From Cenococcum geophilum (taxonomy: Eukaryota): a DNA stretch of 64,000 bases. The notes under the pieces were generated by a model, which was given only the letters and a program-made list of their open reading frames with translations, was not told the origin of the DNA and made no database searches. This document shows positions 1,521 through 43,100 of the stretch, one piece after another. Numbering within the stretch: the first letter of the stretch is position 1; every line of letters starts with the position of its first letter. Location: contig CP158635.1 of assembly GCA_050273025.1 (NCBI GenBank), positions 17,732,001 through 17,796,000 on the forward strand, read 5' to 3'. The position numbers were made by a program, and so were the translations under genes.

Positions 1521-4500
1521 GTCGCTCTCCAGAACGGCTTTACCTTAGGATCTTATTAAACGCATTTAACGTTATAAACTCTAACTCTTAGGACCGTAGT
1601 ATAACTATTAACTACTGTCTTTAGCAGAATAGTTAATAGGCTAATACTTAAATTCTAATTAATATAGGAGCTAGCGGCATAGGATTTATTAATAAGATCT
1701 TTATATAAGATAATGGTTTTACCCTAACCCCCCTTAACCGGCATATTAATATATTTGGATTTAACGGCAAACGCACCGTCTTAGGCCGTATCACCCACGT
1801 GGCAGCCCTAAGACTCTAATACCTAAACCATAAAGAACTGATTAAGCTTTTTGTTACCACCTTAGGTTACCTAGTAATTCTTAAATAACCTTAGATAAAG
1901 CTATATAAGGTGACTATTAACTAGAATAACCTTAAGCTTCTATTTACCGCCTCTTGTTATAAGCAGAAGTGCCTTATAACTCGCTACCCTAACCCCAAAC
2001 TAAAACCTAGAAAATCCACTAAGATTTACTAGCCTAAGATTTCCATCGATATCTACCCTACGCCTAAGAAATCCACCAGATTCCACTAACCTAAGAATTC
2101 CACCAAATTCCACTGATATAAGATTTCCACTAATATCTACTAAAGATCTGGAAATCCCACCAAACCCTATAAACTAACCCTGACTACTACACTACCCCAA
2201 ACTAAGTAGAAGCTTAAGCTTAGTATATAGGAGTACTAAAAGAACTGGTACCCTATAATAAAAAGAATACTTAAAGAACCCGAACCTAAATCTAACACCA
2301 ACTCTATACCTAATACTAAACCTAAACCTAAACAAGAAACTATATAAGAGACTATAGACGATCTAAGAGAGCTCAATACCCTAGATATCCGCATAATTAG
2401 AGCTACTCCGCTAGCTTAGCTTGCTAAGAAGCCTAAATATACGATTTTCGCTGTTATGATAGCTAATATTAAGAAAGCCTTAGCACTAAAGAAGCATACC
2501 GACCCTATTATAAAGGTACCAGCAGAGTACTATTACCGCTTAGATGCATTCTTATAAAAGAAAGCCAATAAGCTACTAGAGCACTAACCATATAACCACA
2601 AGATTATACTTAAAGAAGGAAAGCAGCCCGGATTTAGACCCCTATATAAAATGTTCTAAAACAAACTCTAAGTGCTATAAAAGTATCTGGACAAGAACCT
2701 AAGTAAAGGATTTATTAGAGCAAGCTCTTTACCTATAGCCGTACCAGTAATCTTCGTTAAGAAACCTAGTAACGGTCTACGCTTCTGCGTAGATTACTAA
2801 GCCCTTAACGCCGTTACTATTAAGAACTGATATCCGATCCCGTTAATATAAAAGACGCTAAACTAACTAAGTAAGGCTCGCTACTATACAAAGCTTAATA
2901 TTATCTCTGCATTTAACCGCCTCTATATAGCAAAGGGAGATAAATGGCTTACCGCATTTCGTACTTAGTATGGATTATTTAAATACTTAGTAATGCCATT
3001 TAGCCTCGCAAATACTTCGAGCTCGTTTTAATATTATATAAATAATATCCTGCGCCCCTACCTGGACATCTTCTATACTGCTTATATTAACGACATCTTA
3101 ATATATAGTAATAACCTAACTAAATATTAGAAACACGTTAACCTTATCCTATAAGCCCTGCACGGAGCTGGTTTATAATTAGATATAAATAAATACGAGT
3201 TTTATAAGACGGAAGTCCTATACCTTGGGCTTCTTATTTTTATAAACGGCATATAAATAGACCTAAAGAAAATTAAAGTAATTATAAACTAGTAAGAACC
3301 CGAGAATATTAAGGACGTAAGAGCCTTTATAGGATTTGCCAATTTCTACTAATGGTTTATTAACAACTTCTCCGCCCTAGTTTTACCCCTTATAGCTCTA
3401 ACCTAAAAGGATAAAGCCTTTATCTTTAATAAGGAATATAAGAAGGCCTTTGCTTATCTAAAGGTTATATTTACTACCGCGCCCGTACTTTAATACTTTA
3501 ACCTAAACTAAATAAGTGTTATAGAAGCTAACTTATCCAACTACGTTACTGGAGGCATCCTGTCTTAATATAATAAAGAGGGAGTATTATACCCCGTAGC
3601 ATACTACTTAAAATAACTAAGCCTAGCTAAATATAATTACGAGATCTATAACAAGGAACTGCTGGCTATTATTAAATACTTTAAATAATAGCGACCCAAA
3701 CTAGAAGGCGCTGGATTCCTAATTAAGGTCCTTAGCGATTATAAGAACCTATAGTACTTTACAACCACGAAACAGCTAAGCCACCGTTAGGCCCGCTGGT
3801 TAGAATACCTGTCTTGTTTCCAATTCTCAATTATATACCGCTTAGGCGTTTAAGGCTAAAAGCCTAATGCCCTAACCTAACGCTTGTAAGACGCGCCAGC
3901 ACTAAAAGAGGCACGTTCTTACCGAAATTAAACCCTACTTCGCCCTAAACTATTTAACCCTCCTACTAAAGATCTTATGGTATAAGTCCTTAAAATAACT
4001 AATTAATTAATTAAACAGATTATAACTAACGAATACCTAAATAACAAGTTTATCTAAGAGATGTTTAAGCTAATTTAAGATAGCGTTAGACACTCTAAGA
4101 AGATCTCTCTAAGTAAATATAAAGCTTGCGGAAACCGCTTATATTACTAGAACTATCTAGTTATCCCTAATTATAATAAACTTAAGCTTAAGCTCCTTAA
4201 ACATATATATAACCTACCAGTAGCCGGCCACCTAGGCTAAAAAAAAACCCTAGAGCTACTCTAACGGGAGTACTACTGGCCAAATATATATAATATGATA
4301 TGAAGGTACGTCTCTAGCTATTATATCTGCTAATAAGCTAAAGCTTCGCACGAGATATATAACGGCCTTCTAAAGCCACTACCTATTCCGGACCGAAGAT
4401 AGAAGGACGTCTTAATCAACTTTATTATTAACCTCCCTATAAGTAAGGGCTGCACAAATATTATAGTAGTCGTAGACCAACTATTTAAGATAAGACACTT

Positions 4501-10360: not shown

Positions 10361-12783
10361 CCCCCCCCTAGATTTAATAGTGTAGTTAAAGCTATAGAAA
10401 ACAAGAATAAAGGTAAAAACTATACCAAAATAGGAAATTTGGATACAATTTAGGAGTAGTAAAAGGATAGGGTAACTGTGACGGGTATTGCGGATATTGT
10501 GGATATTGCGAATATCGCGTATGGAGTTAATTGATCTAATGTCAAATATCCACTAAATTCAATTGCTTTATCCAAGCTTTATGCTTCTAACGAGGTAGGA
10601 TCTTAGTAAGGCCATTGGCAGGCATCTTATCTATAGGGACCCATTAAACGTTAATCTTTTTGTCTTAGACCTCCTGTCTAAGCCAGTGCTAATAGACGTC
10701 GATATGTCGAAGTTTAGTATTAAGTTTTAGTATATCCTGTCTTAATAGGCGTATAGTCTACATATTGTCGCAGAGTAGGGTAAAATCGCGTTCTAAATTA
10801 AAGCCGATTGCCTTAGAGAATCGTTGCCACTAGATGATTTTAACAGCAGCAGTAGATAGGGAGAGAAGCTCTACTTTAGTAGTTAAGCGTATAATAGATC
10901 GCTATAGGGTTGCTTTCCAATTAATTAGACCTCTAAATAGGATAAATAGATATCCTTAAGAGCTCCGTCTAGTCTCTTTATGGTCCGCAAATGCTGTATT
11001 AAATGCTCTATAGAAGGTAATATCTTCTCCTTTAAGGTTTCTAAAGTAGACGTATACTCCATAAGCTTTGCCATAGTATTTAATAGCTATAGATTTTGTT
11101 CTAAGGCAATAGGTAATTGCTTAGTTTGCTACATCAAGGTGCTTTTAATTTAGATTAGTAAGAAATTCGGCCAGTTTAGAATGCGTCTTAGTAATATTAG
11201 GCCTTCTAAATATAGCTAGGTGTGTAAGAGAACTAACTCGTTCCTAGTAGGCTAGTGTCCTTTAAGGGTTCGTCTGCTAGTTAGACGGAGTTAGTTCTTT
11301 AGTAGGAAGTAGTAACTTAGGAAATCTACCTAGTTAAATATTAAATCGATTAGCTATCTTTTTAATATAGAAATCTTAGTAAAGCCAGAGCTTTTAACTT
11401 AGTCGATTTTGTTTAATTCGAATTCCTAGAAACTACTGTAGGTCTCCTAGTGCACGGATCTCGTATTAGTATAGTAATTTAGCTTTAAATTCTTTAAGTC
11501 TTTAAAGGTCTTTTTTGGCAAATAGAACGGCAATATTATTTACGTAGAAGAAGATAATAAGTCGTCTGTTAGTAAATAGGTAGTTAGTACCTAGTACTAG
11601 TTTTAATCCAAATTTGGCTAGGGTACTAGTAAGCTCTTTATACTAAAGTAGTGGTGAGATTTTTAATTTATATAGCGCCATAAGTAGCTCTAGGATATGT
11701 CCTTTTTAATTAAATCCTTCTAGATAGTAGCAGTATACTAGTTTACTAAGCTTAGCGTTTATAAACGCGTTTACGGCGTTATACTGTCGAATTTCTAAAT
11801 TAAATGCGGCTGCTATAGCTATAAGGGCACGGAATATTTGAGCAGCTAGGGTTACTACATAGGTCTCTTCTTTGGTAATCTATAGGTCTCCGCGAACACA
11901 TAGTTAAGCTTTTAGCTTTTAAAGATAACTATCGCTGTTAAGCTTATATTTAAAGACCCATTTTAGTAATAGAATCTACTCATTACTTACCTCTTCCTTT
12001 AGTACGATTTTAAATGTCCCTCGGCGTTTTAGGTCATTATATTCTTTTTCTATAGCCTTTTAAAAGCCAGTAGTTAATAGATACTTTCTTAGATCTTTAA
12101 GGTTCTTTAGTTTAGGAGGAAGATTATCCTAATATAGAGATAAGGATCTAGTTTGGTTGATATCCTTTACTGGTCCTATAGCAAATCCAGCGTAGTAACT
12201 AAATAGGGTAGATAGATTGGCTAGTGCTATTATATACGCTTAATATTGAATTCTTTTTAATCCTTCTAGTAGGATAAGGTCGGCAAAAGGTTTAGCTAAG
12301 ACTTCATTAGCTTATGGAGCTATATTAAATAGTTTTAGCAAACTTAGCTAGAAAGGGGTTGTTTTAATTATATCTAGGATATCGTCTTAAAGTCCTCCTA
12401 GTATAGTGTTTATTTCTAGCAGATCTAAAAATACCATTCTGCTAGGAGTTAGTAACTACTTAGTATCCTTTATAGGAGGCTCTACCAAATCATTTAATTT
12501 AGGTATAGTCATTTAATCTACATTTAAGGTAAGTCTATATAGAATAGATTTATCCTTAGACTTATCCTCGTAAAGAGGTTCTAGTAGACTAATTGTCTAT
12601 AGGGTATCTTCTAATGCTTCCCTTAGTAGGTAGTTAATATCTTAACCCTTAGGGTTATAAAATAAGGTCTTATTAAATATAACATCTTTAGTTTAAATAA
12701 CCTTACAAAGACTCGAAATCTAGATTTAATAAATATTAGTTAAATTATAGCCGACTAGATGTCTAATTAATACATAAGGAGCT

Positions 12784-12869
12784 GGTCGTCGAAAACGGAC
12801 TCTGCACCTGTACGTGGTGACGGCTACGAACCTAAGTCTTTGAAGTTCAGACTCAGAGCCAACGCAGAG
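12784..12869 (+). ncRNA. HDV-like self-cleaving ribozyme (predicted)
   Basis: P1 GGTCGTC (12784-90) / GACGGCT (12819-25) with G1-U wobble; P2 CTCTGC (12800-05) / GCAGAG (12864-69); P3 ACC/GGT; L3 TGTACGT; P1.1 GT/AC; P4 CTAAGTCT/AGACTCAG; J4/2 GCCAAC. Confidence 0.8.
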
Positions 12870-13798
12870 ACGTCGCACAGCGTGCGATACGACGTGGTGG
12901 AGGTGGTTGCGAGTATTGTAGGCAGTGGTGAAAAGTTTTCACATAGGATGGTGAGATCTCGAAAACTACTACCGTTAGTACCCCTTATAATAACAGCTAC
13001 TACACTATCCTCCTATTAAGGCACCTGTACGATCCAATATGGATATATAGCATTCGATAGCATCCCCCGACCCCCAACAGAAAGCATTAATAACCTCTTA
13101 CATTAATATATGAGCGAACGCGAATAAACAAAAATAAGCAAATATACGGCCCCTCCTAACCCCTAGGGCGATTGCCCGCGGAGCATGCGGTTACTCACCA
13201 TTAACTATTAAATACTACCTAGCAGCCTAGACAACACCGTATGGTTTTCCTATCTCCTCTTAAGGAGTAGTAACCCTTGGTAAGGGCCTAGCAACTAAGG
13301 CCTAGGCATAAAAGATACCTAGGCATATATACACACGTCCCGCTCGCCTTTTAGTATAGTAGTAGTTTATAAATAAATCCCCCTTACGCCTTTAATAGGC
13401 CCTAGGGGGGGGAGGTATAGTGTATATAGTAATAGTTAGACAAGAGATAGCATATAGGGGATGGCTAAGATATGGGAAACAATAAGTATAGTAATTAATT
13501 GGCAAGGCCTAGCTGGGACGTAGTAAACCCCAGCTGGGATAAGCTAGAGAAGGAAGTAGTGGTTTCTAAGGAGTTTAAAACATCTAAGGAGGAGGACGTA
13601 GCTGTAGGCCTATAGGGCCGCACTACGTGCAAATATAGCAATTTGGGGTTTTTTATCCAACTAAGGTGGCTTATAGGGTTTTTCCTTCCCCTAACTGCAG
13701 GGTTTTCTTCATGTAAATTATAAGTTTTCCCCCTATAACGGAGTAGTCTGCGTGGGCCAGTAGGATCCGTATCAGACGTTAATTAAAGAGTTACTACT
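12784..13798 (+). mobile_element. ~1.0 kb non-autonomous non-LTR retroposon (SINE-like), family 1 copy a, with 5' HDV-like ribozyme and TAC tail
   Basis: 15-16 bp TSD (T)AATACATAAGGAGCT 12768-12783 and (T)AATATATAAGGAGCT 13798-13813; ends TTACTACT; Copia integrase reading resumes on both sides; homologous along its whole length to 16867-17889 (inverted). Confidence 0.85.
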
Positions 13799-13878
13799 AA
13801 TATATAAGGAGCTAGTTTATCTCCCCTTTTAATTCGTTTATCTAGTATATAGGTTTTACAGCCGTATATATGCATATA

Positions 13879-13963
13879 GCCCGCGAAGCCCTACTGCACG
13901 CGTCCACGTCGCCGCGGGTGGAAACATCATTAGGAATCAATTCCTTTTGATGGCCAAGTGCAG
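13879..13963 (+). ncRNA. HDV-like self-cleaving ribozyme (predicted, canonical)
   Basis: P1 GCCCGCG (13879-85) / CGCGGGT (13913-19) with G1-U; P2 CTGCAC (13894-99) / GTGCAG (13958-63); P3 GCG/CGC; L3 TCCACGT; P1.1 CC/GG (13920-21); P4 CATCA..AGGAAT/ATTCCT..TGATG; J4/2 GCCAA. Confidence 0.9.
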
Positions 13964-13968
13964 AGGCG

Positions 13969-14340
13969 ATGGTAGAGAGCCGCCGCAGCGCGTGCAGCGC
14001 GCTGTCGTCGCGGTTCTGTGGTGTTGAGCTCGCGACGCGTACGATGTATCGTATAAAGCTTCGCACAAAGCATCGCCCTCAACAACACCAGGAGCCTTAC
14101 TGCCTCCGCTTGAGGCTCCTGCTCTACCACCTAGGGAGGCCTATTAAGGGAAACTGGGATACGAAAACCACCCGATGTACGACTACCTGGCTCGTAGCCA
14201 GGCCCGAAACTGGCCTTATTAGCCAGTCGACGTGGACGCGTCCTAGGCGTACGACAGGACACCCTTGGGCTTGCACTAGCTCTGAGACCGTAGGGACACG
14301 GCGAGGGCGTAGGGAACCTCTTTTTATAAGAACTTGTTAA
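13969..14340 (+). CDS. Possible 123-aa ORF directly downstream of the ribozyme; unknown product
   Basis: Longest ORF in the supplied track, with its ATG 5 nt after the ribozyme. No recognisable domain; may be a chance ORF in GC-rich sequence. Confidence 0.2.
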   Translation: MVESRRSACSALSSRFCGVELATRTMYRIKLRTKHRPQQHQEPYCLRLRLLLYHLGRPIKGNWDTKTTRCTTTWLVARPETGLISQSTWTRPRRTTGHPWACTSSETVGTRRGRREPLFIRTC

Positions 14341-16866
14341 GGTTAACGCGTCGCAGATACCTCGTACGAAACTTGTTAAGGCCCCAAGGCCACCGCGAAG
14401 AACTTGTTAAGGCCCCTGCCTAGAGAACTCGTTAAGGCCCCTCTATGAGGGCCTATCTGGTATCTGGTACTCCCAGGTGACTCAGAAGAGGGTCTTAATA
14501 GGCGTGGTGCGCGCGACCTGGACGCGACAGTGACGCGATAGCGACGCGACGGCGACCAGACGGCTCGACGAGGTGGAAACACGGGCAAAGCTCTAGGCAG
14601 CGGAAACACAGGCCAGCTTCGACGGCCCCATGGCGACCAGGTGACTCACAGGAGGGTCTTAATAGGCGTGGTGCACGCAACCTGCGCATATACATATGGG
14701 GGAGGCTCTAAGGAAACACAGGCCAGTCGTACGAGGTCTCGACAGTTAGAGACACAGGCCAGCTTATAAAAAGGGGGGACACAAGCTTGGTTAGTAGGAG
14801 AGGGCAGAGCAGGTCGCCTGGCGCGGGACCGAGCATCTACGACCCCTCCTGCAAGACACGGTCGGCCTGTTATGAGGAGACTCTTACAGGCAACGCGAAA
14901 CGGAGACTAGTAGTATATAGGGTGTTGCGCCCCTATACTACTACTAGCCCCCGCGGGGCGTAGTGCGTAGTAGCCACTGCTGGCTCTAGGGACCTCACCC
15001 CTTAGCTGGGCTCTGACCCCTAGTGCACCTGGTAGGTAGGCAGGATTACGTCCTGGCCGGAGAGACTACTACGTGGCTCGAGAGAACGGATGCGCGTGTT
15101 GGTGTACTAATAGACAGGACTGCTCGCTAGGGCAGTACGCTAGTGAGGTACGCTTAAGGAGCAAACAGGAGTTACTTAGGCGGGAGAGGTTTGGCAGGCC
15201 TTAACTGTAGAAGGTGCACCCACTCCACACTGCAGGATGCAGCCACGACGCCCTTGTAGGATTACGCCAGTAGGCGCGTGAGACGGGAGTTGCGACCCCT
15301 GCAAATGGCAGCTTATGCCCGTGCCGGCGGAAACAATGAAGAGAGGCGTGAAACTAGAGGCTATGGAAGGCTCCTAAGCCGTGCGAAAGCGTACCAACTC
15401 TAGGAGGAAACTCTTATACAGACTGCTAGGGGGCAGACTGGTACTTGGGCTAACCCCATTATAAGATATCCGTAAGAACTGGTGAGAATCCCTGTGCGAT
15501 TGGTGGTGGCAGCTAACTGCTTGTGGCTGGGATAAAGCACTGGAAAACTGAGGTAGAGGCCTGGATAAGCAGGCATAGTAAACTCTACTGTATTATTAGT
15601 ACTACTAGTATATATAACTACCTGCCAGTCTACAGCCATTGTGCTGCAGACGACCTCTACTACAACCAGTCTACGGCTGTCGCGCTATAGGCAATCAAAC
15701 TATAGAGGACCGAAGGCGTACCGCAGGCGTACCGCAGGCGCACCGCAGACGATGCACTGCTAGGGTAGCTATAGTAGGGGATAGGGGAAGGGGGCTGGCC
15801 TGTGTTACTATTAGCACGTAAAATATAAGGTGTATAGGGGAATTGGTATTTATACCCTATACAGACAACCTTGTGAAAATTTTTCCTACTAGGGTGGGTT
15901 TATGTAGCAAGGTTCGCCCTTCTAAAATACTATTAGTAGCCTACTTTTGGGGAGAGTAGCTATTAATTACTAATTCCCTACCTATTCTTAAGCAAGGAGA
16001 AGAATAGGTTACATTACCGAAAAAAGTCGTATAGGAATAACTGGTAGTTGTCTCCAAGCTGGCAAACTATATAGAGCCCTTTGTTTTTATATGCAAATGT
16101 TACTAAATCTATCTTTTAGAGCGCTTTTTCTACTCTAGAAACGGCAGAATACAGCAGAAATAGATAAAAGAGCCAGGATTTCTTTATTTCCTTGGTGCAA
16201 ACTAAATATTAGAGAGCAAAATACCAGGACAAAACTCCCCTAGCATTTAAAACGGACCAGAGTGTCCACTTAGTTACTAGTACATGTTAAGCTGCCTAGG
16301 AAGGATTCATGTATATAGGACTATAGCGCCATAGCCTAGAGGCTGCATGCGCAGTATTGTACATAGTATAATACAATTGGATATAAAAAAAAAAAATATA
16401 AAAAAAAATATGCATATAGGTAAGTAAAGGCAGCTTATTATAGGCAACCTTATAGGGAGTTCTCTACCCTAGCTGTTTATTTAGTATTTAATTAAGGGCG
16501 TATCTAGCGGTAAGGAACGCCTCTAGTCCTAAAAACGGGGGTAAGGAAGCTTCTAGCTATATAGCCCTAGATTATTCTATAAGGGTTTCGTCTAAATTAT
16601 TTAGCTTTGCCATTTTATTCCCTTATATACAGGGCTTGGCATTTAAAAGTAATGCCTTTATCTGCGCACTATGTCTATAGGATATCTCCTATCTATCTAA
16701 AAGCTCGCTTATTATCGCTCTAAAAGAAGATAACATCTTAGTAGAATTATATTTTAATTAGCTAGTAAGTCTTACGAATAATAGGTAGGATAGTAGCTTT
16801 ATCCTTATTCTTAGAGGTATATATAAAATTAAATTTAGAATATATGCAATAGAAGTGTATTATATA

Positions 16867-17889
16867 GTAATAGTTCTTTAATTAACGTCTAATACGGATC
16901 CTATCTTGGCCTACGCAGACTACTCCGTTATAGGGGGGAAAGCTTATAATTTACATAAAGAAAACCCTGCAGTTAGGGGAGGAAAAACCCTATAAGCAGC
17001 CTTAGTAGGATAAAAAAACCCCGATTTGCCATATTTGTACGTAGCAGCGGCCCTACGGGCCTACTACACATCCTCCTCCTTAGATGTTTTAAACTCCTTA
17101 GGAACTACTACTTCCTTCTCTAGCTTATTAAAGCTAGGGTTCACTACGTCCCAGCTAGGCCTTACTAATCGATTGCTATATCTTATTGTCTCTTTATGTC
17201 CTATATCTTGCCTATCCCCTATATGCTATCTCTTATATAGACCACTACTATATACGCCTTGCCTCCCCCCCCCCTAGAGCTATTAAAGGCGTAAGGGGGA
17301 TTCATCTATTCTAACTACCGTAATACTAATAAGCGAGCGGGATATTATGTGTATTTGGGTATCTTTTATACCTAGGCCCCAGCTAGGCCCTCTCTAAGGG
17401 TTACCACTCTGTTAAAAGGAGATAGGGAAAACCGTAGGTCGCAATCCAAGCTACTAGGTAGTATTTAGTAGTTAAAAACGGTAAGTAACCGTATGCTCCG
17501 CGGGCAACTGCCCTAGGGGTTAGGAGGGGCCGTATATTTGCTCGTTTATTCGTTCGCTTATATACTTATTTATCCGTTAATATAAGGTTGTTAATGCTTT
17601 CTATTAGGGGCTAGGGGATGCTTTTAAAAGCTATTTATCTACGTTGGATTATATAGGTGCTTAGTAGGAGAACTAGTGGCTGTATTATAAAGGAGTACCG
17701 TTAGTAGTGGTTTTTGAGATCTCACCATCCCATATAAAAACTTTTTACTACGCCCCACAACGTATATAACCACTAGGTCCTACTTACACGCGCTATATAA
17801 CGTCTCTGCGTTGGCTCTAGGTCTGAACTTTAAAGACCTAGGTTTATAGCCGTCACCACATATAGGTATAGAATCCGTTTTTGACGGCT
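16867..17889 (-). mobile_element. ~1.0 kb non-autonomous retroposon, family 1 copy b, with 5' HDV-like ribozyme and TAC tail
   Basis: 14-bp TSD AAGTGTATTATATA at 16853-16866 and 17890-17903; minus strand ends GAACTATTAC; same 5' start as copy a. Confidence 0.85.
17804..17889 (-). ncRNA. HDV-like ribozyme, RIP-damaged copy
   Basis: Minus strand reads AGCCGTC-AAAAACGGA-TTCTAT-ACC-TATATGT-GGT-GACGGCT-AT..CTAGGTCT..AGACCTAG-AGCCAAC-GCAGAG; it differs from 12784-12869 only by transitions. Confidence 0.7.
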
Positions 17890-18977
17890 AAGTGTATTAT
17901 ATATCTATTATCGTTATACCCTGGTTTTCTAAGGGTAATAATATTAAATGCTACCCACTTAAATAGTCGAGTGGCTAAAAATTCATATTCTTGTCTTTAA
18001 GAGATCTGCTATATATACTTTGCTAATAAGCAAGTTTCGCATTTAATTTTAAGCGGTGCTTATTTAGTAGTTAATTCGGTTAGCTCTACGCCATTAACGT
18101 ACTTAGGAAGCTGCTTAATAGCGTTAGGTCCTATATAGCTAAGTATTTTATACCATTTAATAGCTGTGGCTCTAACTAGTTTATAGGCCATATAGCTAGG
18201 CTAAAATCTCTTAGAGGTTAAGAATGTTAATTAAGTCGAATCTAGGGTATTTATAGGCTCTCTATATATCAGCGCCTAGTGGCCCCCTACTTATTTCGTA
18301 TAGTAGACTATTTCGTTAGTTGCTAGACGGTATAGTATATTTCGTCCTAAGTCAAAATAGACATCGTTATTAGTAGCTCTTAATAGAGCTATAATATTTG
18401 TAAATATAGTTAGTACTAGTGCTATATGGGATAGCTTTATTTTTAACTTCCTAGTAGGTATATTAACAGTAATAGTTACTATTCTATAGGCTTGTATTTT
18501 TTCAAAATTTCCGCCAGTAATTAGGTAGTCGTCTTTTATAGCTAGGTAGGAGAAGGTAAAGTCTTCTTAGTTATTATAGACGTGGGTATCTACACTAGGG
18601 TTAAGTATTTAGGTATTCTAGAGTTTAAATAGAAATTAACTAGTACTAAACACGGCAGCATAGCTAGTTAGGGTCTTAGACGGTGGGGTTTTAGAATTAA
18701 AATTAATTGTAAATTCTATACTCTTTACTTCCTATTCTTTTTTTAAAATGTAGTTAACTATATATCTAACCTAGGGTATAGAAGACATCATTTCTTCTAT
18801 TTTTTTAAGGACGTCTGGCCTTGGTTTCCACCCTTAAGGGCACTTCTACTCGGCAATATAGTAGCAGTCGCTATATCGATGTTTGCGACTATAGATGCAT
18901 TTCTTATACCATTTTAAATTAGGATTTGAATTGGGGTTAAAATCTAAATTAGAATTGGAATTGCCTTATAGGGTTAT

Positions 18978-32640: not shown

Positions 32641-33741
32641 TTTAAAATAACGCGTGTACCTACCTACCACAATGCAAAATACAGTTCTGTAGGAAAGATA
32701 AATGCTAGTAACTTTATATCGAGCGACTTAACTCCTAAAACTAGGCGCGTATATTAAATTACTACAAAACTAAAGCCTTACACCCCCTAGTACAGGCGTT
32801 AAATCCAGTACGATTAATTGGCTAGTTTTTATCGATAACCGTTAGACGCGAATTGACGGGCTAAGGGATAAGATACTTATATATTGCGAGCGCTATTGTA
32901 ATTAATTAACCCTAAAGTATAACGAGCTATAATTAGGGACTTTAAGCAAGGCCTTATTTATAATATAATTATAAGACCCCCTTTCTAATTAGGAAGTAGT
33001 AGGTAGACTTTAGTATAAGAAACTAGGCTATATAGAACCTAATGCGATTAAGCATCTACCCTAGGAAGTAGGTGGTGCGAAACTTTAAGGTCTAGCAATA
33101 ATTAACTATAAGATCTATACTGTTAGCAAAGCTTATAAAATTATATTAAGAAGAATACCTACTAGTAAGGCGACTAGGCCCTTCTATTAAGTGCATATCG
33201 ACTTATTTTTAGAGATTGTAGTATATAACGGTTATATCTGGGCGATATATTTCTATAATAAATTTCTACGTTTAAACGAGGTTAAGACCTTTGCCTATAA
33301 GTTGTTAACAATATAAGTAATTATATAATACTTAAATAGAGTAAAATGTTAATACAACCCAAAGATCGTAATAATTTAAATTAATGGCGAAATGTCCCTA
33401 GGTGGTAAGTTTAATCCCTAGAGAATCTAAAAAGGAATATTACTAGAGCAGTTGGCCCTATATATAAATTTATAAAACGGTTCTACCAAACGTTCTAGGG
33501 GGGTAATTATTATTAAGTCTTAATATATATGGATTAAGGCTTAATTACCAAAAGAGCTTTAGCCAGAAATTATTGGGGTAGTAGTGTATTTAATTAATAG
33601 GACACTAAGCGCCTAGCTTAGCTAGATAACACCTTTTAAAAAGCTTTAGTTAGTACTAGGGCTCTCGCCATTAAAGCTAAATATAGCGTACCTATAAGTA
33701 TATGGCTGTAAAGCTTACCGGCTTAAATATAATATCCTATA

Positions 33742-35758
33742 TAGTAAAACCTCGTTATACCATTTAGCTTGGTAGTAGGGGGTTTAAACATTATACTATA
33801 TAGAAACGTTATATTGCGAGCTCACTTATTAATTACTATAAGAGGCTAAATTAACTCTTCCCTCTATCTATAACTACTTAAAGAAGCTTATAATAGTTGT
33901 TTGCCTTACCTACGTAGCTTAACGGCCTTAAATTACTCTCTCTACCTTTATAAGAGCTGTAATTAGAGTCTTATTACTATCCTCTTACTACCCTTTATAG
34001 AGCTTAAGGCGCTTAAGTGCATCTAAAGCCTTATTAAGCTTAATAACTTATAGCTTAACCTCCTTATTGCTTTCTTTATTATCTAGCGCGTTATATAAAG
34101 CAATAATTAAGGCCTTAATTGCTTTCTGTAATATAGAGGCCTTAGGCTTTATTAAAGCGTCCTCCCTATTTATATTAATGAAGTTACTAATAGAAATTAA
34201 TTGCTTAGTTTGCCCTGCTTAGCTAAGCTACTATAAATATACCTCTAATTCGGCCTTAAGCTAAGGCTCGCTATACCTACCTAGCGTACCCTAGGGGCTT
34301 TTATAGGGTTTAAAGATTGTTAAATATATAAAGCAATTTATTACGGTTTAAGGACTAATTTTATACTATGCTGCGATAGCCTACTAAATAGCCCTAAGTA
34401 CGTTTATTGTCTTAAAGGGGTTCCTATCTTATTCTACTTAATCTACTATATAGAATAGCTAGTAGCGGCGGTAATATACTTTAAAGGTTTAAATTATACC
34501 CTAATCTAGAGGCTAATAGAGAGAGATAACGTTTTTAGGTAAAAATTTAACCCTAGTATTAAGTAAGCTAGTGCGCTCTAATATTATAAGTATACCTTTA
34601 GTATAGCTAGGAGCGGAATTAATAAGTAAAAGAACCTTCCTACCGCCTATTAAGCTATTAAACCACTTAATATAATTAAGGAATATTAACGCCGTTATTT
34701 AGGCCTTTTTATTAAACCTTTATGCGAAGTTAAGACCCTTAAGGTTGCTATACTACGTGCTAAAACATTAAGGATTCTTTGCTCTTTTAATAATCTATAG
34801 GGGTATAATATAGCTGCCGTCTACGTTACTATAGTAAATGGTTATAATACGCTTTTTCTACTTTTTAGGACCTAATTACCCTATAGTTATAAGTCATATA
34901 TTTAGCGTAGCCTTATAAAAAAAGCCCTGCCTTATCTATATTATAGACATCTTAATTTAGGTACGCATCTATAATAACCCTAAGCTCCTATATACGCTTT
35001 TTAGCGCCCTCTATATCTGCTAACCTAGCCTCGCTATATAGTTTCTGTCTTAATATTTAATTCCTCTTCTTAAAATTATTAACCTAACCGCTTAAGAAGC
35101 TAGGCTGTTATTAACCCTAATAATACGCTATTATATTCTAAAGCCTTATTACTATAGCCTAAATAAGGTTGCTAGTAATGAGTATATTAGCAACCTATAT
35201 CCGCTATTACTATTTAAATAGCGCTTCTTTAAGCTTAGGATTATTAGGAGCTTTACGCCTCTTAAAGCCCTCTTAGCCGCGTTAAAGGACTAGCAAATTA
35301 AGGTACTTATATTTAGGCTTTAAGGAGTCTAATATAATAGACTATTAAATAGGGCGTTAAAATTAATTAGTAAAAAAGCGAGTAGTATCTCTTTAAGATT
35401 TTTTAGGGTTCTTATAGTAGTATATCCGGATCTACTACCTTTTGCGCTTTAAAACACTATAGTGGCGGAGGCGCTTAGGGTTATCCTTAGGCTTCGCCAT
35501 TGCATAGGGCAAGAGTGGTGTTAAATTAATAAATATTAATGGCTGCGGTGCTAGTTTATAGGCTTAAGAGTAAGGGGTTAATACTTCCATAAATAGGGTT
35601 TTCAACACTATAATAGCTCGCGCTATACCGTTCTTATATAAGAGAGCTTTAAACGTAAGCCTTATAAACCTTATAGTAAAACCAACTGTTTATGGCTATT
35701 GACCGTTATACCGTAGAGAAACGGTATACTAAGATAACGTTAAAACGCGGCTTTACTG
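33742..35758 (-). mobile_element. Tc1/mariner superfamily pogo/CENP-B(Tigger)-like DNA transposon, degraded transposase ~35500-33850
   Basis: Imperfect TIRs (C/T)AGTAAA(A/G)CC.CGTT; TA at 33740-41 and 35759-60; ATG at 35500; FS(N)GLA..(GW)V.NF, VLLLI(D)SA and (Q)PLD(Q)GII motifs on the minus strand. Confidence 0.88.
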
Positions 35759-37151
35759 TATATATAAAAGCTTAAACTAAGGCCTTATATTAGATACCTA
35801 GTAGGGTACTAGTTAATAAATATCTTTAGGGTCTATATACTTAGTAAAAAGAAGGTAATTTAAATAAGAGACGTGACGTTTAATAAGCAATTGCTCTATA
35901 ACGACAGTTAGCCAAATCTTGCGAATCTACTCCAAAAATATGCTAATTAAATTTTGGAGGTAATTAATATATTAAATATTAATAGGACGCTTTAGGAAGA
36001 GCTTAACAAGACGTTAGATAAGACGTTAGATAAGGAAGATAAGGTAGATATTAGTAGAAGTTAATAGGTAGATTCTAATAAAAATTAAGATTAAGTAACA
36101 GATTAATATAATAATATAATCAGCCTATAAGCCTCTAAGGATAACTCTATACTAGGCCTCCCTACCCTAGCTAAGACGCTAGAACTTTAGTTAAATACTA
36201 CTAATATAGAGCCATTAAGTTCTATAATTAATTAAAGACTTTAATTTGAACTTATTCTTAAAGAAGAAGCCTATTTAAGATAGGAGATCTATAGTATTAT
36301 AGGCGATGTTAATATTATAAAAGGTAGAAGAACTAAGAAGCCCTTAACGCGTTAAGCAGCTTACCTAATAAATATTAAGTAATTAGATACCCTTCCTGCC
36401 TTTTATAAAGCCTTTACTACTAATAGTAGATATTACTAAAAGTAATTACACTATAATAAGCTTCTATTACTACCTTATAGCTAGAAGGAGCTTTAAGCTT
36501 ACCTATATAAAAATAGCTTTACGGAAGCCGCAAATAAGGAATATAATAACCTCAAGTAGTAAGGGACATTTGAGGACGTTAAACGGACAGTATTGCTTAA
36601 CGTTTTACTCATTACCTAGGTGTTTACTTATAAGTTTAACACTAATAGATATCTAGTTAAATTTAAAGCCCGTCTTTGTATATAAGGTAACTTATAATAA
36701 CTTAGCAAAAAGGACACGTATATAGTAACTCTTGCGGCTAAAATATTTAGAGCTATAATAGTAATCGTCGCTATATGCAATCTAGAGACTTAGTAGTGTA
36801 ATATAGTTAACACCTTTACTAATAGCTTTATTAATAAGATAGTCTATATTAAGTTTCTAGATAGCTTTTAATAGAAGGGCAGGTGTCTACTCTTTTGAAA
36901 AGCTTTATACGGCTTCTAATAATTACTACTACTTTAGTTTAATAAGTTCTTAACTACCCTAAGAACCCTAGGTCTAACGGTAGTTAATAGAGAATTATGC
37001 CTATTTTATAATAACTAGCTAATTATATTCTTCTATATTAATAATATTATAGCAGCCTATTATATAGAAGATCTACTAAAGCTTTAACTCTTTAAGGAAG
37101 AGCTAATAAAGAAGTATAAAATAAAAAACCTAGGTAAACTAACCTAGTTCT

Positions 37152-40100
37152 TATAACGGAATCCCCCGAGAGGTACATATCCAATAAGACGGTAGGAGGT
37201 TTTATCTATATCCCATCTATGTTCTAGAAGACACAGTTAGACAGGTTAGGGGCGAAAGGTTTTACTAGTGTCTTGGAAGAAATATATAGGAAGCTAGTTC
37301 CCCTCTAGAGAAGAACTAGCGATTAGTCTCTAAATAGAAGTGGTTAAAAGCATTTGTCCTTTAATATATAAAACTTATTCTACCTTTAACTTACTTTTAA
37401 CTTATCTTTAACTTACCTTCTACTTACCGGTAATACTATTAATTAGATAATTATACGTTCCGGTTAGGCTAGTCTCTTATAATTCTAATCGCTTATAATC
37501 TATTAGGAACGTACGGCTATTAATTAATGATAATAGACTATACTCCTATACCCTATAAAGCAACGCCCTTACTATAAGAGGCTTAAAGAGTCTCCCTAGA
37601 GGAGCGCATTCCCTCTTTCTATAAAGAAGCCACGGCTAGTCCGTCTAACCTTGCGAGACCCTTAAGAACGATTACCGCTAGGGAGTTATTAGAGCGGTCG
37701 CTATACAAGACCCTATAAAAAACAAAGGAGTTAGAGATATAATTAAGATAAGTATATTAAGACTACTAAGAATAATTGCAAGGACAATTAGGAGAAGTAT
37801 AGATACCCCAGACACGAAGCGGACTTAAAGGGGTAACGCCACACTATACTATAACGTTAGAAAAACCTAAATTCCGCATAAAGGAACCTAATAAGTACTA
37901 TAGTGATAGTCTTCGGAACTATAATTATTTTATCCAATAATATAAAACTAAGTTTTAGCTAAATCCAAAACGTTACTCTAATGAGTATAATTAGACACTA
38001 ATTGCTTCTACCTTCCTGCGTAACACTATTAAGAGTTTATAGACACGCTATAAGAAGAAACTTACTATACCCCTTAAATTTAGCGAACTTAGGACCTAGT
38101 TAGTCGATTAGGTCTAAAACCCTACTAATTAAGGGATAGACTATAACTAGCGATACTACAACGCCAAACAGCAGAATAGTTAGACTGTGGTCTAGTTTAT
38201 AAACTACTTAGAAGAACTAGAAGATAATATACCCTACTTAGATCTGTGGGATAACGCTATATAACTTTACTAGCTACTCGCTAAGCTATAACCTAAGATT
38301 TAATAGGCTATATAAGAGAAGGGCGAAATTCCTACCTTTTAAGAAAAGCTTATCTCTAAAGCTACTTGGATTAAAAGTACTAAAAAAGACTATCTAGGCA
38401 AGCTAAAGGAATAAGACGCTAATAATAAAGAGCGTAGGACTAGACCTAGCTTTAATAATAGGGGTAGATTCTAACCTAACCGCTCTATAGAAGGATAACG
38501 CGAGCAGGCCTTATAGCCCTAGAGTAACGCTAGTTAACCCTAAAATAATAATAGGCAGAGACCTAATCTATAAAAGGGGAACCGGGAGACACGCACCTAT
38601 TATAACTACGGTAAGAAGGGCTATATAAGCCGCTTCTGCCGGTAGAAGAAGTAAGAGTCGGCTTAATTGGGAAAAGAGACAGCCTAGTGGATCTTTACTC
38701 TCTTACACTAGGCCAGTAAGAGAAGGAGGGAGTAAACTACTGTATAGTTATTCCTATCTCTATTTAAGTTAATAATAAATAGGTAACATAAGACTGCCTT
38801 ATAGACAGCGGCGCGAGTATAGGGTTTATTTCTTAATTACTAGTAAAAGAATTAGATTTGGACCTTAGCGGCTCGCAGGTGCGCACCATTTAAAGCATTA
38901 GAGGCTACTAGATTCTATACTACGGGGAATAGGCTTTTTCCATAGCCAGCTAGGACCGCAATAGTCTATAGGACACGCAGGAGATACGCTTCTGTGCCGT
39001 AGAAATTAAGGGGTATAACCTTATTTTGGGATACCTATAGCTTTACCAAGTTAATCCGGACATTAATTAGCCTTTAGCCTTATATTAATATCGGAAGTCT
39101 TAACCGCGCATTATAGTTAAAGATTAAGAGACTTTCTTAAACTATATATAAGAAGAAGGGTAGGCATATACTATATATGCCACTCTTAATACTAAGAACG
39201 GGGACATAGGATATTTATTTTCGGATATCCGGCTATGCGCAGTTAAGGAACTAGAGATTCTATAGGAATATATGGACTTAGAGGATATTTCTAGTAAAGA
39301 GGCTGTATAAACCTTATCTAACCCTATATTAGTTAAGTATAAAATAAACATAGGGGACAAACAACCTTCTTTTAGACTACTATATAATCTGTTAGAAAAT
39401 AAGCTAGCGGTACTACGTTAATATATAGTGGACAATCTTTAGAGAGGATAGATTTAGCCCTCTATAAGCCCGGCAGGGGCACTAATTATATTTATACCCA
39501 AGAAGGACGGGACCCTTCGCCTTTATATCGACTATTAGGCGCTAAATAAGATTACTATAAAGAATTGCTACCTATTACCCTTAATAGGGGAGCTTATTAA
39601 TAGGCTGTTAGGCGTAAAAATATTTATAAAATTAGATCTAAAAGATATATACTATTGAATCTAGATTAAAGCCAGTAATAAGTAGAAAACGGCGTTCTAA
39701 ATATAGTACGGCTACTTTAAGTACCTAGTAATGCTATTCGGGCTTACTAACGCACTAGCGATATTTCAGGCCTATATTAATAAGGTATTATTAGGCCTAT
39801 TAGATATAATATATATAGTCTACCTTAATAATATTATAGTCTACTCTAATAACTACGAAGTATATATATACTACGTATAAATAGTACTAAAAAGTACACG
39901 TTCTATACTACTAGCATTAATTTTTTAGGCTTTATTATTAGCGTTAACGGAGTGTTAATAGAGAAAAGTTAGGTGGACGCTATTAGGGAATAGCCCTACC
40001 CTATGACATTTAGAGAAGTATAGGTTTTCTTAGGCACGGCGAACTTCTACTAAACGTTTATTATTTACTACTTATAAGTAATACTCCCAATTACCAATCT

Positions 40101-43100
40101 ACTAAAAGGATCTAAGAATGGTAAGAAATTAGGACCCTTTATATTTAGGGAAGCTGCTAAGTAGGCTATAGACTAGTTAAAGGATTTGTTTACGTTGGCG
40201 CCTATCCTAATATACTTCTGCTAGGAGCTACGTATATACTTTAAAACGGATATATTTAGCTTTACCCTAGGGGCAATTATATCTTAATTAAAAGACGGAA
40301 AATAGCATCCTATGGCGTTTTAGTTAAGGAAAATAACCCTTATAAAGCAGCGTTATATAACGCACAACTAGGAGCTACTTGCGATAATTGCAGTAATAAA
40401 GTACTAGTGATATTATTATATAGGAAGCAATTATCCTATTAAAGTCCTTACAGACTATAATAACCTAGAATACTTTATAACTATAAAGGTGTTAAGCGGT
40501 TAATAAGTAAAATAGATAGAGGTACTATTGCAGTATAACTTTAAAATTATATACCGCCTAGGGAAGATAAATCCTGTTAATAGGTTGTTAAGACGTCTAG
40601 ATTATAAGATAGGGAGGATCCAGGACAGTATAGGGGAAATAATCCCTATATTGTAAAATTTGCTTAGGAAGAAAAAAGACTCTTTCCCTAAAACTATAGA
40701 ATTTTGTAGTAGGGCAGAGGTCCTAGCAATATAGCTGCGAAGTAACACAATTATAGAGCCGCAGGATATAGTTATAGACTAGGTTATAGACTAAGCAGAC
40801 GTCACAAAGTTAGCGTACCCTAGAATTAGCGAGAATTCTACGGGATATACTAGAGGTGTCGCGGTACCTTTAGCTTGACGGTATATTAGCTGCGAGTTTT
40901 TAGATCTAAGGGGGATAGGTAAGATACCTATTCGCAACATGGCATACTATATAACGGTAGAAGAATTTACTAGCACTAATAGTTTAAAATATCTCGTGTT
41001 ATGCCTTAAGTCTATAATAGCGGTAGGTAAAATGGAAGTAAGTAATCTGTATAAAACCTTTTTAGATCTTCTTCTTTAAGCTTAATAAAGGGACACCTTC
41101 GCCTTTAGGGAAAGGTAGAAAGATATAGTAGAGACCAACTTAGCCGGAGTTATTAAAAAGCTATAGTAGTAAGACTAAAAGGGTCTATTGCGCTTTAAGG
41201 GTGCTATATATATCCTAAAGGACCAAGCAATTTAAGACGAAATTTTAAAGGTCTTCTATAATAACCCTTTTAGGGGTTACTACGGTGCTAATAGAACCCT
41301 TAAGGCCGTTTAAAGGAAATACTTTTAGGACAGAATGTTTAAAGAGGTTAAGGACTATGTATTAAGGTATAATACGTGCTAAAGGATATAGATATCTAGG
41401 CATCGCCTATATGGCGAGTTATTAGTGCTTTCTATTCCGTAGGGACCTATATTAGAATTAATAATAGATTTTATTATAGGCTTACCCCCTACTAAGATAA
41501 GAACTGGAGAGGTTGCTAACGCTATTTTAGTAATCGTTAACAGGTATATAAAGTTTTTAAGATACTTTACTATTATAATAATGATTACGGCAGTAGAACT
41601 AGCAGACCTGTTTTTAAAATAGTGGCTTTTATTTAGCACGCTAAGGGGAATTATATCTAACAGAGGTACTGTATTTAATAGTATATTCTAGTTTTTATTC
41701 TGTTTCTTGCTAAAAATACGGTAAAGGATAAGTACTACCTTCTACCCGTAAACAGACGGGTAAATAAAGCGTCTAAATGCGTTATTAGAACACTACCTCC
41801 GCTGCTATATTAATTATTAATAGGATAATTAGACATTATAGTTAGCTCTAGCGTAGTACGTATATAACATAAGCATTTATAGTAGTATAAAAATAACCCC
41901 TTATAAAGCATTATTTAGGGTAAAAGTAAATAACCCCTAGAATATTAAGGATATTATTCCCGAAAGAGAGGCACTAGCGGCGTCCGAAAGAATTAAGCAA
42001 ATAAGAATTTGTAGAAAGGAACTTAAAAAGCACTTGCTAGACGCCTAGGTTATATAAAAAAGGTACTATAATAAAAAACATATACTAAAAGAATTTAAGA
42101 TAGGAGACGAAGTCTTATTATTTATAAAAAAATATCCAAATAAAACGCATTAAGAAGAAGCTGGATTACCGGTAGCTTGGACCCTTTAAGATAGTTAAGA
42201 AAACTAAAGGAAACTAAGCCTATAAATTAGAATTACCGAAATCTTATCTAATATATCCTATATTTTATATTTCCTTGCTAGAGCTATATTAGAGAAGAGA
42301 TAGTACGGAACCGCCCTACCTAGCAAAATTAATAGGGAACTGGAATAGAATATAGAAGATATTCTAGACTAAAGATGGCGCTAAAAAAAGCGCGAATTTT
42401 TAGTTTATTGGGAAGGATACTTTTAGGTGTATAACAGTTAGGAACCTAAGGAGTACCTTTAGCTAGGATATAATACCGTAATTAAAACCTTTTTAAGAAC
42501 TAAAGGTAAAGACTTAGAAATAGTTCTAGATATACTATAGGTAAAGTAATAGGGAAGACCCCGTAAATTAAAACTATAAAATTAAGTATAGGCATTAAAA
42601 ACAGAAACGTTTCGCTATTATAATAGGGATCCTAGAATCCTATAAGAGGAAGCCTATAGGGATCTATAGAAGAACTACTAGGGATACTGTTTAAAGAAGA
42701 CGCTGTTTAAGAAGGAGCAGTAGCACTATAAGAAGTGGCCTTGGGGATTTAGAAAGATCCCCTAGGGATAAAAGGAGAGTATCTAGCCTGGCACTAGAGA
42801 TACGCAGTAGAGTTAATAGTATAATGAGGAGCAAAAGGATAGCCTATAAAGAATTAGAAATTTTAAGGAATTATAAGGCACCTATAGGAATACTACCCGT
42901 TTATTATATATGGGGATTATAGTAGTACACTATATTTATATGGATTATTACTAAAGCTTAGAATAAAGGCATCCCTAAAGTATAAAGTTAATTCCTAATA
43001 ATAGGGCATCCTAGAGGCACCTAAGAGGCACTATATAAAGTTATTTTATAAGAAGAAGGAAAGAGCTAGGTAATAACTTAAATACTAGTAGTAGTAATAG

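Follow-up and report, generated by a model that had tools for sequence, protein, structure and literature searches.

Does a fungal retroposon carry a self-cleaving ribozyme at its 5' end, and what kind of element would that be? The question is raised by a stretch of about 1 kb in the DNA of Cenococcum geophilum (assembly GCA_050273025.1, contig CP158635.1, positions 17,732,001 to 17,796,000 of the forward strand; this whole stretch of 64,000 nucleotides is referred to as the window, and positions are counted from its first letter). An earlier inspection of the letters alone (hereafter the sequence-only reading) had described there a sequence resembling a short interspersed nuclear element (SINE), which ends in a TAC-type tail and starts with a fold of the hepatitis delta virus (HDV) ribozyme type with an uncommon P1.1 helix. 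We found that this element, called copy A, belongs to an abundant retroposon family of ~1 kb, transcribed but non-coding, from an ascomycete active in repeat-induced point mutation (RIP), and that copy A itself has decayed. Moreover, sequence comparison supports a head with every architectural feature of an HDV-like ribozyme, its P1.1 differing from two G-C pairs.

Ends, copies and transcripts of the element

Copy A, the structures at its ends and a second copy in the window (copy B) are placed as follows, with the basis in brackets:

12784-13799, + strand: retroposon copy A, ~1016 bp, non-coding, RIP-decayed (blastn family match; DNA and RNA depth jumps at both ends)
12768-12783, no strand: 5' target-site duplication of copy A, TAATACATAAGGAGCT (sequence reading and repeat search)
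13798-13813, no strand: 3' target-site duplication of copy A, TAATATATAAGGAGCT (sequence reading and repeat search)
13791-13799, + strand: microsatellite tail of copy A, TTACTACTA (sequence reading)
16865-17889, - strand: retroposon copy B, heavily RIP-mutated (blastn, 78.6% identity to copy A; sequence reading)

The sequence-only reading had claimed a duplication of 15-16 bp, a TAC-type tail and no clear tRNA boxes, and all three agree with our results. The duplication is a 16-bp repeat with a single C/T mismatch between its two sides, and the repeat search paired 12768-12786 with 13798-13816 (89% identity, repeat family D2). Copy A terminates in GTTACTACTA with the tail given as TACTACTA, the final TA of which is ambiguous with the opening TA of the 3' duplication. 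ARAGORN reported 0 genes in 12000-18500, and Rfam gave no tRNA-like head. The surrounding window is A/T-rich repeat DNA with a G+C of 0.27-0.44 across most kilobases and some richer islands, and it contains only one stop-to-stop frame of at least 130 amino acids (aa).

When copy A was compared with the window by blastn, copy B was the single additional copy. A separate 14-bp duplication, TATATAATACACTT, flanks it (17903-17890 and 16866-16853), and the differences between copies A and B are almost all G/A and C/T changes. The population letters of a stranded RNA run (X21) differed from the window by 65 A>G, 71 T>C, 24 C>T and 25 G>A changes, and at 40 places spread over eight kinds of transversion. 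Since these differences are mostly A>G and T>C, the loss of G and C from copy A bears the mark of RIP.

Further members of the family were collected from metagenome contigs with a scan pattern consisting of fixed GGTGACGGCT and AGCCAAMGCAGAG, 15-45 nt apart. At least 121 loci were found, and 1.5-kb flanks were taken for 80 of them. It should be underlined that the pattern fixed P3', P1', J4/2 and P2' of the fold described below, so that no variation was possible there in this sample. Locus L065 was an unrelated G+C-rich chance match and was left out, which leaves 120 further heads among the matches listed; in locus L040 the contig end interrupts the element. Among the matches listed, the motif GGCCGTC (at most two changes) opens the element in 119 of the 119 heads that have at least 60 nt of upstream sequence, position -12 is A or T in all 119, positions -12 to -10 being almost exclusively A/T, and a flanking repeat of 8-19 bp (commonest 15-16, one mismatch allowed) is found around 41 of 43 complete copies. 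Mean pairwise identity was 0.355 over the 20 nt upstream of the start, as opposed to 0.934 over the first 20 nt of the element. The A/T positions ahead of the start point to an A/T-rich target, and they suggest the nicking site preference of the endonuclease involved.

Most complete copies end in (TAC)2-6 or its RIP form. L014 and L035 instead carry (TCTC)n; L022 and L078 carry (TAA)n-type repeats; L040 and L042 end in TAT repeats, which may be either TAC altered by RIP or a different repeat. The head lay ~1 kb upstream of the tail for 44 of 44 tails in the window and the fetched loci, a sample chosen by its heads. Coding capacity was gauged on 53 stretches, each covering the first 1010 nt of the element in a locus that continues for at least 1000 nt downstream; a few of these stretches are interrupted or belong to the second family described below. 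Their longest ATG open reading frame (ORF) had a median length of 57 aa, and the positions of these ORFs were not conserved.

The copy A stretch was matched in 20 listed runs from 13 studies (two organism labels; soil metagenomes, fungal metatranscriptomes), and four runs were mapped onto 12700-13900 at 80% likeness. In the DNA run X1, a flank depth of ~3,000-4,000 gave way to ~59,600 in the first bin of the element, and past the last bin the depth dropped from ~33,000 to ~8,000. Boundaries matching those of X1 were seen in X8 (soil) and in X15 (RNA contigs). Contigs broke at 12787 (13 in X1, 16 in X8), and their unlike A/T-rich flanks ended in GGC. Copy A carries T at base 3, where the family base is C; since the contigs read GGC before 12787, the family start is GGC-CGTC and base 3 of copy A has been changed by RIP. 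The deepest bin of all was 13151-13191 (~187,700 in X1, against ~8,800-50,600 on either side; ~103,300 in X15), which may be a segment common to other repeats or the best conserved part of the element.

With regard to RNA, ~12% of run X21 was read and 15,861 reads were mapped. The first mate lay on the minus strand in a ratio of ~50 to 1, and since minus-strand first mates dominate, the family RNA is sense (~98%). Depth was 0 in 12741-12781, 998 in 12782-12822 and 4,872 by 12946-12986. Further downstream, at 13069-13109, the sense depth falls ~7-fold (from 4,407 to 672), and 13075 is the starting point of 448 of 2,169 molecules; the drop could be due to a divergent stretch that breaks alignments, or to a real RNA 3' end giving a 5' fragment of ~290 nt.

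With duplications, a repeat tail, no ORF and many copies in unlike flanks, the family has the marks of a non-autonomous retroposon of the type without long terminal repeats (non-LTR). It is no SINE in the strict sense, as the head is not tRNA-, 7SL- or 5S-derived (ARAGORN, Rfam), and it is SINE-like solely in its shortness, non-coding nature and tail.

The HDV-like fold and its variation

Ribozymes of the HDV-like class cut just 5' of a 7-bp P1, which is usually G.U-closed, and leave a 2',3'-cyclic phosphate and a 5' hydroxyl; they have a 3-bp P3, an L3 of 7-8 nt whose second and third bases form P1.1 with the two bases behind P1', and a catalytic C in a C-N-A-A sequence that runs directly into P2' (P, paired region; J, joining stretch; L, loop; a prime marks the 3' strand of a helix). 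The parts of this fold in copy A, with element numbering in brackets, are:

12784-12869 (1-86), + strand: HDV-like head (descriptor match from 12784; pairing in 121 heads; comparison with the neighbouring retroposon)
12784-12790 with 12819-12825 (1-7 with 36-42), + strand: P1, GGCCGUC/GACGGCU, closed by the wobble G1.U42
12791-12799 (8-16), + strand: J1/2
12800-12805 with 12864-12869 (17-22 with 81-86), + strand: P2, CUCUGC/GCAGAG
12806-12808 with 12816-12818 (23-25 with 33-35), + strand: P3, ACC/GGU, 3 bp
12809-12815 (26-32), + strand: L3, UGUACGU, 7 nt
G12810-C12827 (G27-C44) and U12811-A12826 (U28-A43), + strand: P1.1
12828-12831 (45-48), + strand: J1.1/4, GAAC
12832-12856 (49-73), + strand: P4 hairpin
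12857-12863 (74-80), + strand: J4/2, AGCCAAC
12859, + strand: proposed catalytic cytosine, first C of GCCAA in J4/2 (column invariant in 121 of 121 heads, in a stretch fixed by the pattern)

The sequence-only reading had called the fold complete from base 1, and every named helix is indeed present from 12784, in the order P1, J1/2, P2, P3, L3, P3', P1', P1.1', P4, J4/2, P2' of the nested double pseudoknot. P4 of copy A carries one A.C mismatch; in the head of L035 all 18 of the 18 core pairs are standard. In 119 of 119 heads the base that follows the duplication is G1, the predicted cleavage position of the HDV-like class, and C12859 would by its position be the counterpart of C75 of HDV.

The fold was searched for with a descriptor comprising a 7-bp P1, a 3-bp P3, an L3 of 7 or 8 nt, two P1.1 pairs of any kind, a P2 no shorter than 5 bp, a P4 hairpin and, for J4/2, C-N-A-A zero or one base ahead of P2'. 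It was written after the candidate had been seen, and the odds given here are somewhat flattering. The strict form missed copy A (one RIP mismatch in P4), and the relaxed form, which allows one P4 mismatch, matched the window three times, at 12784, 13879 and 44280 (- strand). Random expectation was 0.57 matches per 128 kb (30 random windows of the same first-order composition), with odds of ~4 in a million for a match at one given base. The relaxed form was passed by 47 of 119 family heads, the remainder failing through RIP changes or a P4 bulge of the commonest subfamily. Three matches outside the family were obtained in 230 kb of loci (460 kb over both strands), which is what chance predicts. 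The third match in the window (~44170-44280, - strand) is A/T-rich with a weak P1; it is most likely a chance match, in line with the expectation of 0.57.

The match at 13879 opens another retroposon, which starts 80 nt downstream of copy A and is sequence-unrelated to it:

13879-16408, + strand: neighbouring retroposon, ~2.5 kb, G+C-rich, with an A-rich tail (descriptor, sequence, ORF scan)
13879-13963, + strand: its canonical HDV-like head, 85 nt (strict descriptor)

This element has a 10-bp duplication (TATGCATATA, at 13869-13878 and 16409-16418) and no ORF of at least 130 aa between 13879 and 16408. The proposal of the sequence-only reading that two unrelated ribozyme-type heads exist thus appears to hold, as judged from the folds. 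The 13879 head consists of P1 GCCCGCG/CGCGGGU, P2 CUGCAC/GUGCAG, P3 GCG/CGC, L3 UCCACGU and P1.1 CC/GG, its GCCAA abuts P2' without an extra base, and its nested minimum-energy fold includes P1, P3 and P4. When the helices of the two heads were compared by explicit positions, both sides differed at 10 of the 18 core pairs (three in P1, three in P2, two in P3, two in P1.1), all 18 being standard in both heads, and the unpaired U..ACGU of L3 and the GCCAA were identical. As to the claimed GU/AC in P1.1, the geometry is present, and the contrast with CC/GG in the 13879 head is the one observation that favours this reading; within the family no informative covariation was seen. Part of the body of the neighbouring retroposon recurs in L011 (~80% identity), and it contains an internal direct repeat of 48 bp (91.7%; 14473-14520 and 14637-14684).

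The alignment of the family comprised 121 heads, 95 of them distinct, with the copy B row three bases short. Standard pairs filled 96.6% of 2,400 pair cells, as against 26.7-45.4% with the partners slid by 1-3 columns. This figure says little for P1, P2 and P3, because their 3' strands were fixed by the pattern and their 5' strands vary by RIP-type transitions alone. Subfamilies differ at position 12 in J1/2 (A, U or C) and at the last base of L3 (U, A or C). P4 occurs in 62 distinct forms of 14, 15, 17, 19, 23, 24, 25 and 29 nt, and a single hairpin closed by the first and last base is formed by 42 of the 62 (87 of 120 copies); the forms that fail mostly have a G-to-A change at the third base. 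The outer pair of P4 (columns 52/71) is A-U in 23, G-C in 20, G-U in 19 and other in 4. The fourth pair from the base is G-C, C-G or A-U depending on the subfamily, and the change from G-C to C-G is one that RIP cannot produce. Subfamilies without the TTCGAA tip of P4 retain many independent insertions, and since they still inserted widely, a tRNA-type B box at this tip is not needed.

The head also occurs on a different body. A second family of ~830 bp with a (TAA)n-like tail was found in two loci that are 92% alike, and the two families have in common a 3' cassette with a stem-loop:

L022:498-1328 (+) and L075, match strand: second family
13746-13777, + strand: 3' stem-loop GUCUG...CAGAC of the common cassette (RNAalifold, 12 copies)

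Likeness between the second and the main family is confined to nt 1-88 (88% identity) and to the final ~43 nt (84%), and the ~690 nt between them are unrelated. As the likeness of L022 and L075 stops after nt 88, the conserved 5' block ends at the end of the fold. All 11 pairs of the 3' stem-loop are kept in 12 of 12 copies, with little covariation, and the stem-loop is presumed to be the recognition site for a partner reverse transcriptase. No carriers of the 3' cassette beyond these two families were found in the window and the 230 kb of loci.

Proposed processing by the head and rival explanations

We consider it likely that the element is built of three modules, namely an HDV-like 5' cassette of 86-88 nt, a replaceable body, and a 3' cassette of ~45 nt followed by a microsatellite, and that it is processed by its ribozyme. 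The element is transcribed, abundant sense RNA being observed, and transcription would start at least partly by read-through from upstream. The head would sever the transcript immediately 5' of G1, the first C of GCCAA serving as general acid; because of this proposed cut, every RNA would start at the identical base. P1.1 would act as one G-C and one U-A pair in place of two G-C pairs. The reverse transcriptase of a partner LINE (long interspersed nuclear element) would recognise the 3' cassette and the tail, and target-primed reverse transcription would take place at A/T-rich sites. The expected outcome is full-length insertions with duplications of 14-16 bp, and uniform ends and duplications are what we observe. 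Catalysis by the head, taken by itself, we judge to be probable, with much the same confidence.

A LINE partner was not found in the window or the fetched loci. The blastn search of the element against the window returned the two copies alone, and none of the 13 listed (TAY)n runs is preceded by the family 3' cassette. Of the 186 stop-to-stop frames that reach 50 aa, the 150 longest were scanned with Pfam; the outcome was a DDE_1 fragment, an RVT_1 fragment below threshold and two weak, chance-like matches. The DDE_1 fragment represents RIP-degraded transposase remains at 34516-34698 (- strand, E 3.2e-6), and the RVT_1 fragment RIP-degraded reverse transcriptase remains at 39707-39877 (+ strand, 24.6 bits against a cut-off of 29.6). 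The link to the Tad1 clade suggested in the sequence-only reading is a tentative one. It draws on the (TAC)n tails ascribed to MGR583 and Mg-SINE; TAC does not occur as a whole word in PMC3978060.

Other explanations have to be weighed. One of them, already raised by the sequence-only reading, is that the element is a common LINE fragment that has lost its 5' part and whose 5' ends vary. Because of the fixed start, the duplications, the tails and the lack of a conserved ORF, the family is a non-autonomous non-LTR retroposon and not a truncated LINE: one common start is found in 119 of 119 heads, every tail has its head ~1 kb upstream (in the sample chosen by head), and the X1 depth at the head (~59,600) is not below that at the tail (33,000-41,000), unlike 5'-truncated LINEs. 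No observation in favour of this explanation was made; it is ruled out by these results and retains practically no credibility. Very improbable, though not to the same extent, is that the HDV-like fold is a chance likeness in a structured 5' region. The post hoc descriptor, which permits any P1.1 pair and one extra base in J4/2, lends itself to such an objection, and chance-like matches did turn up at 44280 and three times in the loci. Against this stand the expectation for random windows and the very low odds at any given base, the fact that two unrelated retroposons, 1.1 kb from each other, both match the descriptor from their first base, and the many family heads that pass the descriptor despite RIP.

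The remaining explanation sees in the head an internal promoter or a cassette bound by protein (RNA polymerase II or III) that fixes transcription at G1, with a fold that is not catalytic, although promoter and ribozyme functions could coexist. Such a promoter at G1 would give equal 5' ends and an RNA boundary at the element start, both expected of a +1 start site, and catalysis is argued from the fold. The invariant core helices could reflect conservation acting on the DNA, and in L1Tc a single region of 77 nt serves as promoter and ribozyme alike (PMC3185411). On the other hand, the P4 hairpin is kept through deletions and through G-C, C-G and A-U changes, which points to selection on RNA structure. 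The head resembles no tRNA-like or other Rfam RNA, and its B-box-like TTCGAA is dispensable in amplified subfamilies. The conserved block stops exactly at the 3' end of the fold, and the canonical neighbour has an equal architecture with 10 compensated pairs. We therefore regard a head that acts as promoter or binding cassette alone as unlikely, yet as deserving more attention than the two explanations above.

Beside the ends that a promoter would equally give, several results weigh against processing by a ribozyme. An extra invariant C (12863), which the class may not tolerate, separates the AA of J4/2 from P2'. An Rfam search with E up to 10, covering copy A and four un-mutated loci, gave no HDV-type match and chance-level hits alone; this says little, because the canonical head at 13879 was missed too. 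The claim of the sequence-only reading that standard descriptors could miss the P1.1 variant is supported in so far as the Rfam models miss the family head; they miss the canonical one as well. The family head, in its nested minimum-energy fold, forms P2 and P4, with a competing hairpin, CGUGGU/GCUACG, in place of P1 and P3, and the stability of the fold was ordinary in four heads (z = -2.15, 0.17, -1.58 and 0.47). The competing hairpin lies at element 30-45 (12813-12828), was present in three of the four heads folded and is absent from L022; it would exclude P1, P3 and P1.1 and may be an alternative inactive fold.

The variation within the family is likewise unfavourable. No pair of P1, P2 or P3 is changed on both sides, and in P1.1 a double-sided change occurs in 1 of 95 distinct rows, the variation being RIP-type. 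Of these rows, 66 have G27-C44 intact, 3 have a wobble there and 1 has A-U, and in 25 the pair is broken; such breakage is expected since dead copies decay, and it gives no support. In X21, 318 of 1,173 molecules end at 12793, which is base 10 and not base 1, and this pile-up may arise because libraries of this type tend to lose the final few bases. It should also be borne in mind that reads from other loci cannot reveal read-through precursors on the unique flank of copy A, and that 71 of the 80 named loci stem from two assemblies, so that the sample probably represents one species.

Relation to known ribozyme-headed retroposons

If the head cleaves, ribozyme-processed retroposons would extend to filamentous fungi, fungal HDV-class folds of open context would gain a concrete genomic role, and the natural P1.1 variant (G-C and U-A) together with the J4/2 insertion would test the requirements of classical descriptors. 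The two-cassette build, with an 88-nt head and a tail of ~43 nt on unrelated bodies, shows how new non-autonomous families are born. A broader idea, which we put forward tentatively and hold to be somewhat doubtful, is that the HDV-like ribozymes of filamentous fungi, of which hundreds are known in varied gene surroundings, are largely 5' cassettes of non-autonomous retroposons, with the 88-nt and 45-nt cassettes being recombined onto unrelated bodies and so founding new families. On this idea, an active P1.1 of G-C and U-A would mean that descriptor searches undercount the class, and the abundant sense RNA would consist of processed, cap-less transcripts. The general picture is unchanged, as HDV-like ribozymes in mobile elements are established in animals and trypanosomatids. 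In the literature searched, no link between a fungal retroposon and an HDV-like ribozyme was found; subscription papers or the alignments of PMC5640933 may hold one.

L1Tc and the non-coding NARTc have an active ribozyme in their first 77 nt with a one-pair P1.1 (PMC3185411), so the P1.1 variant is less unusual than the sequence-only reading had implied. SIDER elements also carry a ribozyme of the Pr77 type, and the classical descriptor was found too restrictive (PMC4035085). These trypanosomatid elements resemble the present family in having a head within the first ~77-90 nt, non-coding carriers and, on the GU/AC reading, a P1.1 that departs from two G-C pairs. They differ in that their head cleaves at +1, whereas that of the family is known from its fold, and the family has a fungal host, a G.U-started P1 and a (TAC)n-type tail. 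Unlike for L1Tc, no autonomous LINE with this head was found in the window or the fetched loci.

HDV-like ribozymes also head R2, L1Tc, Baggins and RTE, and some metazoan non-autonomous SINEs (PMC6765202). In R2, RTE and Baggins the retroposon RNA is freed from a co-transcript by the 5' ribozyme, which thereby defines its 5' end precisely (PMC6765202), and the same is proposed for the family. Those elements are animal and mostly protein-coding, and R2 is site-specific in ribosomal DNA; the family, in contrast, is non-coding and dispersed at A/T-rich sites. Among fungi, Mg-SINE and the LINE MgL/MGR583 of Magnaporthe provide a pairing of a non-autonomous retroposon with a LINE (PMC3747384). Mg-SINE is listed as tRNA-derived (PMC3747384), whereas the family is ~1 kb long, starts with the HDV-like fold and is without a tRNA-like head.

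Closest in host are the 230 HDV variants that Li and Breaker (2017) described from 26 fungal species, two of which cleave in vitro and which have an inserted base between P2 and P3 (PMC5640933). The paper speaks of 'widely variable gene associations', and no word starting with 'retrotranspos' occurs in it (PMC5640933). Like the family, these variants are HDV-class folds in ascomycete genomes in which an inserted nucleotide breaks the classical descriptor. Their cleavage site has C-G, their P4 contains an E-loop, and their extra base sits between P2 and P3 (PMC5640933). In the family head the corresponding pair is G.U, P4 is a plain hairpin and the additional base separates J4/2 from P2'; the two sets were compared by description and may overlap. 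The family is best placed as a fungal addition to the known ribozyme-headed non-LTR retroposons, and the observation behind it is real and far beyond chance.

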